Positions 14,411 to 30,276 of a stretch of 64,000 nt of DNA are shown in pieces. The position numbers were made by a program, and so were the translations under genes. Every line of letters starts with the position of its first letter. The stretch's first letter is position 1. The stretch comes from Eledone cirrhosa. Lineage: Eukaryota. The notes beneath the pieces were generated by a model. The model saw nothing but the letters and a program-made list of their open reading frames with translations, was not told the DNA's origin and searched no databases. Location: assembly GCA_964016885.1 (NCBI GenBank), contig OZ024741.1:39370001-39434000 (forward strand), read 5' to 3'.

Positions 14411-16091
14411 TAGGTATGTAACAGGGCTGGCTTTACATTACAGATCAGACCATTCAAAACTATTTTAATCTAGTCAGTTTGACTCACAAGTTTTGAGTCG
14501 ACTGCAGGCTGTGGCAAATGACACTAGTTCAAGATTCTACACGGAGAGATAGAGCATGATTCTAATTTGGACATATTTAAACTGCATGGAGTCAGCCAAA
14601 TCATGTCTAGATAGCGTATTCTGCAAGGAAATACATAAGGTTAACATGGGGTGTCCACATTTCAACGTTGTCAACTACATAGGCCACAAGTTTGTGATCC
14701 ATATGTTCGACTTTGATAGGCTTAACAGACAGGTACCTGGTTAAGACAGCTACAGATTGATAACATATGTATTCCACATTTGATCGCTAGTGTCGTCCAT
14801 GGTTGGTTTGCAAATTCGGGAATGTTGGCCCGAGGATGGTTTTGTGGGAGATACGAGTGCCAGTAAACTGTTGGTTACCGGTGTTTTCTGACTGTTTTCT
14901 TTACGGTTTAAGGCAATCTGAGAGTTTTAATTGCGGGTTAAAACAATCAACGGTTTCAAATACATCAACATTGCTATAATGGCCAACCTCTGTGTGATTA
15001 TGTGAAACCACACACTGTATTTTTTGTTGTTTTTTTTCTATATACAGGTTGTATACGATATTTTTTCGTGGTCTCTTCTTTCTATATTAAGCGTGATATT
15101 AATATATATCTTCATTGTTCTTCATCGTCTGTTGTGTTTTTTTCGTTTACTTTTCACCCGCTCACGTACACACACACACGCGCGCGCGCGCGCGCGCGCA
15201 CACACATATATATATATGTGTGTGTGTGTGTGTGTGTATACATATACATAGAGATAGGGGGATATGTGTGGGTGTGTGCATGTCCGTAGCGAAAGTATCT
15301 ACAAGAAAAAAGACCGTTTTATATATATGACTGTTTTAACATACATCAACACCATCTCGCTGACAACGAATATAATGTATTTATACCGTCCGTTTGTTTT
15401 TCATATATTATTCTTTTCTTCTTTACCTTTCTTACCATATGATGTTGCTCTAACCTGATCCTCTACCGGATATGTCGAAATGTTGGTTATATGTCTATAA
15501 AGTACATATATACATGTTCCCATAACTACTCAGCTGGACTTTACACAGGAAAATGTCTATCACCAGGACCTTTTATGCACATATATGAGTATATTGATAT
15601 ATATTGATAACATATTAATGGTTGAAGACCGACTACTTTTAATAGCTTTTTTTTGCAGATATTTTCCAATTTTTCTCATTTCTCCACACGAGAGTCTTTG
15701 TAAAATCTCTTCAGCTATTTGTATGCCTGAAGTATTGACTAACAACCATAGCTTTCACTTATGCAGGATTTGGTAGCTCACGAAACCTCCCGTTGCAAAT
15801 GGGATAATATGGATATGAATCATAATAAATATATATATGCGTGTACGTGTTTGTTGTTTGTGTGCGAGTGTGTGTGTTGTCCTAAATAGTTGTCTTTGGG
15901 GGAAGCTTTTAGTGTGTTGGGACCAGGAATAGTATTGTTGCAGCCAAAACCACAAAGCACACTAATGATAGATTGTCCGACTGCTGCAGGATTTCAGTGT
16001 CCTTCGTTTTGTCCATTGTGTGATTTCTGGATATCTATCTATCTATCTATCTATCTATCTATCTATCTATCTATCTATCTATCTATCTATC

Positions 16092-19000
16092 AGTGGTAAA
16101 GGCGGAGCGTTTAGGTTGGTAGCCGCCTACGGCCCTTTCGCATCAATGCGGCCGGACTTCTTCCATCGTCTGGAGACTTTTCTAGGGACGTCCCGCTCCT
16201 TGCTATTAGTGGGGGACTGGAATGGTATCCTAGATGCACGCTGGGACTACGTAGGGGCCTGCCCCGATAGAGAGGGGTGTAATAGCCTCAAAGGGTTAAT
16301 CGGTCGATTTGACCTGGCCGATAGATATCGACTACGCCAACCTGGACTTGGGCAAATCGTAGCGGATCATCTAGGTCGTACCTAGATAGGTTCTTAGTTA
16401 GAATTAAGGATAAGGACTTTTTAAGTTGTCCAAAAATGCGCATGGTTGGCTATTCAGACCACAAATTAGTGACCTGCATGGTCAACCTTGACAGAACTCA
16501 TAGACAGGGCCCCGGTTACTGGAAGCTCAACTTGTCCTTGCCGGCAAGTAGAGCCTACAGGAATCGGATTAGTACGTTAGTTAAGGAACGGTTGACTGGA
16601 GCGATCGTCAACAGCAGGTGGTGGGTATCTCTAAAGAGAGAGATTAGAGTAGTCTCGATAGAATTTAGTAAGGTTCTAGCTGCGGATAGGAATAGGAAGG
16701 AAAGGGAGCTAATAGATAGAGTAGAAGAGGCAATTAGAAGCGGCGACGTGGCCAGAGTGCTAGCGTCGAGAACGGCTTTGAGCCAGTTTTTCGACGCGAA
16801 GCACGAAGGCTGCGTTGTCCGAAGTAAAATACGTGCTCTAGGGAACGAGGGGACCAAAGCTGTTAGCTGGGCCCGCGTGACAGAGGCCAACAGTGGAACT
16901 AAATCCACCATCCGGTCTTTGCGAGACCTGGATGGACGGGCGATTCTTGAGCCTAAGCAGATGTGTGAGGCCTTTCAAAGGCACTTTGCCCGACTGTTCG
17001 GGAGGGGCGGGGAGCCGGTTGGGAACGTGGACTTCGGTCCATACCTCGACGGCCTGCCGCGCCTCTCGGACAGGGAGGCGAAGTCCTGCGAGGAGCCGAT
17101 TTCGGCCGCTGAGATAGAGGACGTGCTGAGCCAATGCGGCAAACGCAAATCCCCGGGTCTCGATGGTCTTCCTTACGAATTATATCTAGCTATGCCGGAC
17201 TTGTTCCCCGATCTCCTCGAGGCGGTCTACTGCAACTGGCGACAGAACGGGAGAATTCCCTGTACTGTGACCAAGGGCGTAGTCACGCTAGTGAGGAAGG
17301 ACGAGAACAAGGGGGACGAAATAAGTAACTTCAGGCCCCATAACTCTGCTAAATACAGAGTTACAGATTTTGGCCAAGGTGCTAGCAAAGAGGTTGGCGC
17401 TTGTCGTGGGCAACCTGGTGGGAGATGCGCAGACATGCGCTATCCCGTCCAGGTCCATCCATGACAACCTCCACCTCATGCGATACATCATAGAGAGGGT
17501 TGGGAACGAACCCGGCTTTGGTGGGGCTCTGATCAACTTGGATCAATCTAAGGCGTTCGATAGGGTCGACCATGGTTACCTGGATGCGGTGCTAGCGGCG
17601 GCAAGCTTCGGACCCGTTTTCAGGGGCTGGATCACTGCTATGCACAGCAGCCGCATCTGCTCTAGGGTCAAGGTGAACGGCTACCTCTCGGAGCTGTTCA
17701 AAATCGCGCGGTCCATCCGACAAGGGTGCCCTCTCTCCTCCCTTCTGTATGTGTTGACTCTCGAGCCACTACTGCGGAAGTTGGAGTTGTTGCAGGGCAT
17801 CCCTTTGGAACCGGGATTGCGGAAAGCGGTGTCGGCCTACGCCGATGACGTGACAGTAATGGTGTCGACGGCCTCCGAAATCGAGGCGGTCGGCACCTTA
17901 CTGGAGGAGTACGAAAAGTTCACAGGGGCTAAGCTGAACCGGGACAAGTCGATCGGTTTGCAACTCGGCACGTGGAGGGGCAGACCGATGCCCTCCGATG
18001 GCGTCGTCGGACGCTGGACGGAGGGCCCGGTGAAGTTGCTCGGGGTCTGGTTCGGACCGGACCTCCAGGTGGAGAAAAACTGGGCGGAGGTTACGAACAG
18101 GGTGTTTGCACTGACCCAGAAGTGGGCCAGTTGCAAACTATCCCTGAAAGGTCGGGCGGAGGTGGCGAACACCTACATAGCGTCCGTCATCTACTACCGC
18201 CTGACCGTAGTGCCCTGCCCAAGGGAAACCCTCACCAAGATGGAGCGCGCGCTCTTCCAATTCCTTTGGAAGAGGCGGGCTCCTATGGTGAGGAGATCCA
18301 TCTGCTGTCAACACCCTTCGAAAGGAGGGCTGGGGATGCCGTGGCTAATGATGCGTAAACACGCATTAAGGCTACGGCACCTCTACGTATTCCCCACCGG
18401 ACAACCGGTGTGGGCCTCGTTTGTGAGACGAACCTTTCCCAGACTCGTCTCACTCACCGAGCTGCAATCCTGGGTCAAGCAAAGACCGAGAAAACTGGGC
18501 GCCTGGCACACTGAGTGTGCCCAGGCGCTCACCGCCCTCTGGCAGGCGGATCCGGTTATCAGTGGAGACTCCACCGCAACATTCTATAGAGGGCTGGTAC
18601 GCAGCAGGTGCGACGACGCCCTCGGAGAAGCCCTAGACATGGAGGAGGACGAACTGGCCGGCCTGTTCGGTAGGACATTCAGCCCGGGACCTATGGACAA
18701 CTTCCAGAAGTCCCTGGCCTGGCAGTGCTACCGAGGAGCTTTACCCGTTCGAGAAAGGCTCTACAGACACGGGCGCCCGGGTAGGGACCCCGCCAAAAAG
18801 ATCTGTCCCAGATGCGTGTGCGACGAGGAAACCGTTGCACACGCATTGGTACACTGCTCGGGCGTAGCCGATCTGTGGGGCTATGTCGAACAACTGCTGT
18901 CAAGGGTGGGACCGATCCGGTTGACCACCGAGTCTATTGTAATGATCAAGCCGCCTCCCCCCTTCAAAGATGAAGCAGAGGCGGTGTTTCTGTGCGTAAT

Positions 19001-29000: not shown

Positions 29001-29990
29001 CCCGCTGACCGAACTCGTCTCGCTGACCGAACTGCAGACCTGGGTCAAGCAAAGACCGAGGAAAATGGGCGACTGGCATATTGAATGTGCTGAGGCTCTC
29101 ACAGTCCTCTGGCAAACGGACCCGGCGATCAGTGAAGACACCACTTCGACATTCTATAGAGGGTTGGTCCGCAGCAAGTGCGATGACACGCTCGGAGAAA
29201 TTCTAGGCGTAGAGGAGGACTAACTGGCCAGTCTGTTTGGTAGGACCTTCCGCCCGGGACCAATGGACAACTTCCCAAAGTCCCTGGCCTGGCAGTTTTA
29301 CAGAGGAGCTCTAGCAGTTCGAGACAAGCTCTATAGACACTGGCGTCCGGGTAGGGACCCTTCGAAAAAGATCTGTCCGAGGCGCGTGCTAGAGGAGGAA
29401 ACCGTCGCACACGCATTTGTACACTGCCCGGGCGTTACCGACCGGTGGGGCTATGTAGAACGACTATTGTTTGCGGGTGGGACCAATGCAGTTGACCACC
29501 GAGTCCATTGTCATGATCAAACCGCCACCCTCCTTCAAAAACGAGGGAGAGGTCGTTTTCTTATGTGTTATGGCTATGGTGAAAGAGGTTATATGGTGGA
29601 CGAGGTTAAAAGGGCTGAGGTCAGACACCTTTCTCTCCGGCGAGCAACTGATTCGTTTTTTCAAATATCATTTTGGAAGAAGAATCAGGATGGAGAGAGA
29701 GGTGCTGTACCCCAGCAAATTTTATAAAAGGTGGGTGAATGTGACAAAGATAGCCCGAGTGGTTGGGCCTTCTCTCTATATAAGCCTGTAGGTTGAGGTA
29801 AAAGAGGAAGAGAGATGAGGGTTGTACATTTTTTCGGGGTGTGTACAACCCCTGTGTAACACCTCCCCCATATTGGGGATTTCAATTGTTATTTGTTATT
29901 GTATTAATAGTTTTATTTTCATATATCTGTATTTAAACTCCCCATTTGTATGTGTCCCCTTCTTTTGTGCCCTTGTGGCTAATAAAGAAA
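26100..29990 (+). mobile_element. L1/Tx1-clade LINE copy C, older and decayed, truncated in ORF1 (5' boundary approximate)
   Basis: ORF1 C-terminal remnant YNRVLLKCFP (copy B LNRVLLKDFP); ORF2 starts MANIRVG at 26344; 3' end CCCTTGTGGCTAATAAAGAAAT then (ATCT)n. Confidence 0.9.
26344..29791 (+). pseudogene. Disrupted ORF2 of copy C
   Basis: Fragments 26438-27661, 27526-28614, 28696-28995, 29263-29791 with multiple frameshifts and stops. Confidence 0.92.
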
Positions 29991-30276
29991 TATATCTATC
30001 TATCTATCTATATAAATATATATATATATTTACAATAACTACAAGCAATACCACTATCATATTACCACCACAACTACTATCTCAACCCCTAAAACTATTG
30101 GTATAGCTATCACAACCAGCAGAACATCTAAATTCCCGCCACCATACCAGTATATTCATATAATTCACCACCACCATTTATATTGCCACCCCTGCGAAGA
30201 TGAAATGATATTCCAGGATTTACCTTCTAGAGTGTTTAATGAAAGAGTGGTGACTGTGGCAATAATAATGAAGCTG

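Follow-up and report, generated by a model that had tools for sequence, protein, structure and literature searches.

An L1/Tx1-like LINE lineage with a preference for (ATCT)n microsatellites in the genome of Eledone cirrhosa

In the 3.0-Gb genome of Eledone cirrhosa, a lineage of L1/Tx1-like long interspersed nuclear elements (LINEs) sits in one orientation at TATC units, with a preference for (ATCT)n arrays, likely as a result of insertion there by target-primed reverse transcription (probability about 0.85). This reading is carried by the domain anatomy of the element, the bias of its flanks, its orientation and target-site duplications, mostly of 7-21 bp, that start at TAT(C). Four pieces of the lineage are stacked in a window of 64,000 nucleotides (contig OZ024741.1, C2:39370001-39434000), to which all coordinates without a contig name refer.

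The stack and the flanks of its copies

All four pieces lie on the + strand within 16032..30010, and each closes with GCCCTYGTGGCWAATAAA..GAAA followed by (TATC)n, without a poly(A) tail. The initial annotation had described this layout, which needed small coordinate corrections only. On sequence grounds the pieces are assigned to four subfamilies of one lineage. The stack is composed as follows:

16032..16091, + strand: (TATC)15, target array lying ahead of copy A
16092..19539, + strand: copy A, young subfamily, 5'-truncated inside the endonuclease domain (residue ~122 of open reading frame 2, ORF2), two frameshifts
19540..19583, + strand: (TATC)11, array downstream of A that received the insertion of B
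19584..25288, + strand: copy B, a full-length member of the youngest subfamily (566 exact 5' ends genome-wide) with both ORFs open
19787..21622, + strand: ORF1 of B, ATG to TAG, one CCHC zinc knuckle and a long Pro/Thr-rich C-terminal part
21556..25056, + strand: ORF2 frame of B, apurinic/apyrimidinic-type endonuclease (APE), reverse transcriptase (RT; YADD) and C-terminal zinc-binding domain
25289..25426, + strand: (TATC)4 (25289-25304), then a (CT)n(TA)36 compound microsatellite
25425..25512, + strand: extremely 5'-truncated copy of a further subfamily, reduced to an 88-bp 3' tail, with 90-96% matches at other loci
25520..25539, + strand: (TATC)5, between the tail and copy C
25541..29990, + strand: copy C, older subfamily, near full-length, internal ORF1 deletion and frameshifted ORF2
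29993..30008, + strand: (TATC)4, then (TA)n, downstream of copy C

Copy B is intact and young, being about 99.8% identical to its sister copies, while A shows 98.8-99.5% identity to its closest relatives and C about 92% to its closest. Within the stack, B is 86% identical to A and 77% to C. The differing divergence noted in the initial annotation is thus present, but reflects distinct subfamilies and not aged copies of one. That annotation had also recognized B as an element, with a start that is now corrected to 19584, and C as a copy ending in ATCT; C is near full-length from 25541 and is preceded by ATCT as well. Arrays precede A and B as had been claimed, but the one before B is the downstream array of A. 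Since the array before C is likewise that of the tail, only the 5' array of A counts as independent evidence in the window. The 88-bp tail itself is preceded by (TA)n and not by ATCT.

Genome-wide, 25,572 occurrences of the shared 3' motif were counted, corresponding to about 25,600 3' ends for the lineage. Counts of the variable-gap form of this motif were taken from the + strand only; its minus-strand version counts one place several times. Of the 566 exact full-length 5' ends of B, 529 follow TATCTATC. At the other end, 537 of the 748 B 3' ends found with a shorter motif have the GAAATTTATC form, so that most B copies are full-length. A search with the B 3' region gave 40 scored hits that were 100% identical across 589 bases, and 15 of the 49 fetched loci in which both anchors were present have both ORFs open. 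TATC closes each 5' flank and opens each 3' flank of the 50 B copies available with both ends, and 34 of these copies lie outside the tail of another copy. For C, two or more ATCT units were found near 22 of 25 5' ends, one of the 25 being that of the window. The background, measured in 200 kb made up of 20 evenly spaced genomic stretches, is 0.44% of positions with two or more ATCT units ending at most 15 nt upstream. The ATCT repeat after the 3' end measures 4 to 73 nt, and this variation argues against a fixed tail.

Several side observations concern the same arrays and copies. Chimeric copies join a 5' end from one subfamily to the ORF2 of a second (L161, L166, L167, L131, L063), and L193 has a 5' inversion. 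About 10 nt of the element 3' end (TAAAGAAA..) occur alone inside ATCT arrays (one random stretch; L087), resembling aborted insertions. A short element ending in CAGGGGGCTC, which we take to be hAT-like, stands immediately after ATCT arrays in L004, L013 and L214. Sequencing contigs from two other organisms match the element (L031:303-612); in those of one of the two, two pieces (171 and 138 nt) are identical to the B 3' region.

Truncated copies and target-site duplications

Full-length 5' ends could carry ATCT of their own, which makes truncated copies the test between target and tail. A set of 29 truncated copies with resolved junctions was assembled: the motif search, followed along the genome, supplied 23, four were obtained separately, and L009 and copy A of the window complete the set. 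Excluded were families F and G (described below), copies with an unresolved 5' boundary (L201, L214, L228, L230, L234-L237), the chimeric or internally rearranged copies L063, L131, L139, L149, L151, L157, L159, L162 and L168, and further L211, L218, the inverted L193, L130 and L135.

A same-strand ATCT array (two or more units within 20 nt) precedes 14 of the 29 copies, against none on the opposite strand (0/29; binomial 2e-24 at a background of 0.55%). Exact duplications extending past the pure repeat were found in 11 of the 29, compared with a mean of 1.05 and a maximum of 5 in 2000 shuffled pairings. Allowing one mismatch proved too noisy (11 versus a shuffled mean of 5.5), and exact matching was used instead. 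The eleven duplications measure 7, 7, 11, 13, 16, 18, 19, 19, 21 and 21 bp, plus one of 41 bp within a long array, and all begin at TAT(C) right after the last base of the element. The 3' flanks of the truncated copies begin with TA in all 29 cases and with TATC in 23. The position of the duplications implies that the first downstream repeat is target DNA and not just a tail. Duplications containing interruptions were also seen in full-length copies, of 20 bp in L143 and ~21 bp in L053, the latter followed by 11 further nt of ATCT. The view of ATCT as target rather than element-encoded tail, already favoured in the initial annotation, is upheld by the 5' arrays and the duplications of the truncated copies, and the genome-wide inspection of 5' flanks that it called for gave ATCT at the B, C and truncated copies in the proportions reported above; the outcome named there as refuting, a majority of copies with non-ATCT 5' flanks, did not occur.

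Element anatomy and sister families

The ORF2 of B matches PF03372 (Exo_endo_phos; E 1.8e-11) and PF00078 (RVT_1; E 1.1e-23), with a weak zf-RVT match. The AP-like endonuclease is N-terminal to the RT, which is the order of the L1-group APE-type LINEs, and 5' truncation and target-site duplications are both present in the lineage, as in that group. Among solved structures, the best relative of ORF2 is human L1 ORF2p (E 8e-49 over residues 26-876); R2 is matched in the RT only (E 3e-23), placing the element nearer to L1 than to R2-type RTs. The zf-CCHC match of B ORF1 is weak (E 0.019, below the Pfam cut-off), and the CxxCxxxGHxxxxC motif is present in ORF1 of C copies too. A CCHC zinc knuckle in ORF1 is typical of the Tx1 clade. 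The poly(A) tail of mammalian-type L1 was seen in none of the 50 B copies and none of the 29 truncated copies. More than 20% of the flanks are of one sequence type, the measure of target preference used for Tx1 elements (PMC4494074). The junctions lie at TATC and not in the (TC)n, (TTC)n, (TTCC)n or (TTTC)n of the Kibi/Koshi group. With an endonuclease-RT ORF2 and a zinc-knuckle ORF1, the lineage is best classified as an L1/Tx1-like LINE, the Tx1 label being putative. Protein searches returned no named Tx1 relative among the matches, and a metagenome scan gave distant elements only (22-40% identity).

In ~55 B-type loci, as at 21600-21640 of the window, an ATA overlaps the ORF1 stop where subfamilies F, K, C and H mostly carry the ORF2 ATG. 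The first Met of B-type ORF2 lies beyond the first catalytic motif, so that its translation would depend on a frameshift or on reinitiation at a non-AUG codon. A small intron that would link ORF1 with ORF2 (GTRAGT motif) was considered and rejected, with no acceptor conserved across subfamilies. The 5' ends of B, C, E, F, J, K and M share an ACACGC/AGACGTGT/ACACGT-like motif ~10-20 nt into the 5' untranslated region, a candidate internal promoter element.

Two sister families, found with the same motif search, differ in target. Family G has (ATT)n downstream, and also upstream in the three full-length and two very short copies examined. Such (ATT)n-flanked families are abundant (L240, L247, L249, L238, L215), and 5 of 20 random 10-kb stretches contain a match. 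Family F has 326 3' ends, or 334 by a slightly shorter pattern plus an invariant NNAC junction, and all seven copies examined lie between units of a ~72-bp repeat. This repeat belongs to a TTAA-flanked, inverted-ended, piggyBac-like miniature inverted-repeat transposable element (MITE) with 11,345 left ends in the genome. In a sample of 14 MITEs, 12 had no F 5' end within 1.5 kb and five had both ends. The F copies in this MITE are L199, L200, L207, L209, L217, L223 and L224, and a tandem run of six was seen at C1:4.23-4.26 Mb; those listed on C1-C3 are only near contig ends, and the MITE is dense further in.

Midpoint rooting of a tree built from the RT region of 32 copies makes G the first branch and places F within the ATCT clade (98/98 and 99/98). 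The tree suggests the target order ATT, ATCT, MITE, in a lineage where recombinant copies exist. ORF2 of F is about 80% identical to that of B (63-84% among close relatives overall), which together with the nested position of F makes the switch of target recent. Loop grafting has linked the endonuclease hairpin to target choice (PMC1950540). This hairpin is the same in F and C and does not, therefore, explain the switch; the PFW after the YA motif in F is a candidate determinant only. We propose tentatively, giving it somewhat less than even odds, that an undescribed and very recently active Tx1-like radiation exchanged (ATT)n for (ATCT)n as its target, and this in turn for the 72-bp MITE repeat, with its hairpin unchanged, guided in part by flanking repeat at both ends of its own RNA. 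If true, such a radiation would explain the unusually high share of full-length copies and would be both generator and user of GATA microsatellites.

Outside the stack, the window holds a short, divergent (33%) endonuclease-like fragment upstream (14568-14741) and a 310-bp tandem repeat of 99-100% identity (33432-36290), the first part of which is the reverse complement of the second (junction ~34635).

Proposed insertion at TATC, alternative explanations and known systems

For the route of insertion we infer a nick site, RNA ends and RNA-target pairing as follows. The endonuclease would nick the GATA strand at, or a few bases from, GATA/GATA. An AATAAA stands only about 6-10 nt ahead of the element-target junction, for which reason read-through of the transcript into the downstream array is proposed; such pairing of read-through RNA with the target is reported for R2Ol (PMC6530143). 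The AUCU end of the transcript would pair with the nicked strand and copying would begin at the element-target border, which would leave no poly(A). The second-strand cut would fall at a variable distance of at most about 21 nt downstream, and microhomology or an ATCT leader would serve to join the 5' end. The pure 5' run of B clusters at 20-28 nt (30 of 50 copies); this and the variable downstream run fit a transcript that begins in the upstream array and anneals to the target. Each insertion would duplicate up to five repeat units and so regenerate the target on both sides, allowing later subfamilies to stack into the arrays. In the window, C and the tail would be older, and B would have entered the downstream array of A.

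Several observations weigh against this reading. Across the lineage, only 7,167 of 13,145 plus-strand 3' ends (55%; families F and G included in the denominator) have TATCTATC within 3-14 nt. No TATC stands at the 5' junction of eight of the 29 truncated copies, which may be off-target insertions or may have suffered later deletions, and some lie in (TA)n or unrelated minisatellites (L204, L205, L221). Only three of the 29 are of B-type. At least six non-tandem full-length B copies have an interruption within 7 nt downstream that was left unduplicated, so the duplication length is not fixed. No empty allele was found in contigs of four public runs compared with the 3' end and flank of one copy. 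The specificity is near-strict in B and C and only a preference across the lineage, strong but not absolute in the older and A-type subfamilies.

It has to be considered whether the element mainly makes its microsatellites, by recognising a single TATC or TA-rich site and adding ATCT from a 5' leader and a 3' tail. This could hold together with targeting, and it suits the narrow 5' run of B, which is irrespective of the 3' run, the several copies whose pure repeat measures 21-36 nt upstream and no more than 7 nt downstream, the extra ATCT of L053, the single TATC duplicated in L175, L220 and L222, and L148, which has about four units on each side in a minisatellite with one TATC per neighbouring unit. 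Yet truncated copies cannot carry a leader and nearly half of them lie behind arrays, which in some cases measure 40-60 nt (window A, L009, L154, L196); extra units are absent from L143, and many 3' flanks have no array. We regard this as an unlikely main explanation; the element may nevertheless supply part of the 5' array in full-length copies. About equally doubtful is a specificity that comes mainly from pairing of a read-through RNA 3' end with loosely nicked TA-rich DNA, and not from an endonuclease that reads sequence. The hairpin of F, identical to that of C and nearly so to that of G, the TA-rich off-target sites and the suggestion of Repanas et al. that RNA-target pairing may restrict usable nicks (PMC1950540) speak for it, but the Tx1L endonuclease nicks its own target almost exclusively in vitro (PMC1950540), and that of F has family-specific changes elsewhere (PFW versus PFG/PSG/PTG after the YA motif). 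Random insertion with passive persistence or accumulation in ATCT arrays, or a stack made by recombination or assembly error, is very improbable: near-identical copies do occur in tandem runs (e.g. C2:33.31-33.32 Mb) and some copies are chimeric (L131, L166), but phase and strand are strict, enrichment is several-hundred-fold over background in copies 99.8% alike, the duplications are anchored at TATC and four different subfamilies make up the stack.

On the insertion reading the target preference is real, and the target is new for elements of an otherwise known kind. The full-text literature searched showed no LINE targeting ATCT or GATA; Repbase, Dfam, subscription papers and supplements lay outside it and could hold the family. 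For Octopus vulgaris, active L1-Tx1 families are listed with no target given (PMC13282606; also PMC8967140, PMC10294476, PMC8869645, PMC7265360). Microsatellite targeting has been called not well understood in mechanism (review PMC3812793), and how APE-type LINEs gain or switch specificity is an open question. Intact, near-identical copies of close relatives with three targets in one genome permit direct domain-swap and RNA-end-swap tests. Mostly full-length insertion into GATA repeats could serve as a site-directed insertion tool, and the family would explain shared flanks of tetranucleotide markers in such genomes.

SART1, Waldo/Mino, Dong and R2Ol, of the R1, R4 and R2 clades, are likewise repeat-targeting non-long-terminal-repeat elements. 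Their targets differ, being TTAGG, ACAY/AC, TAA and 28S rDNA, and SART1 needs a minimum of three repeat units (PMC7265360; PMC3812793; PMC6530143). Human L1 ORF2p is the best solved relative over endonuclease and RT, but the present lineage has no poly(A), a zinc-knuckle ORF1 and ATCT instead of a T-tract as target. Closer in habit are the L1/Tx1-group APE-type LINEs that prefer pyrimidine microsatellites, Kibi on (TC)n, Koshi on (TTC)n and crocodilian Tx1 families on (TTCC)n/(TTTC)n (PMC4494074; PMC3812793); those targets are all polypyrimidine and in vertebrates, whereas the present lineage targets ATCT/GATA and has a sister group on (ATT)n. Family F, in its TTAA-flanked MITE with inverted-repeat ends, resembles Xenopus Tx1L, which targets the non-autonomous piggyBac Tx1D, and crocodilian Tx1-Mar, also on a DNA transposon (PMC4494074), but its hairpin loop is without the RDGH tip reported for Tx1L (PMC1950540), and F is nested in an ATCT clade by a recent switch.

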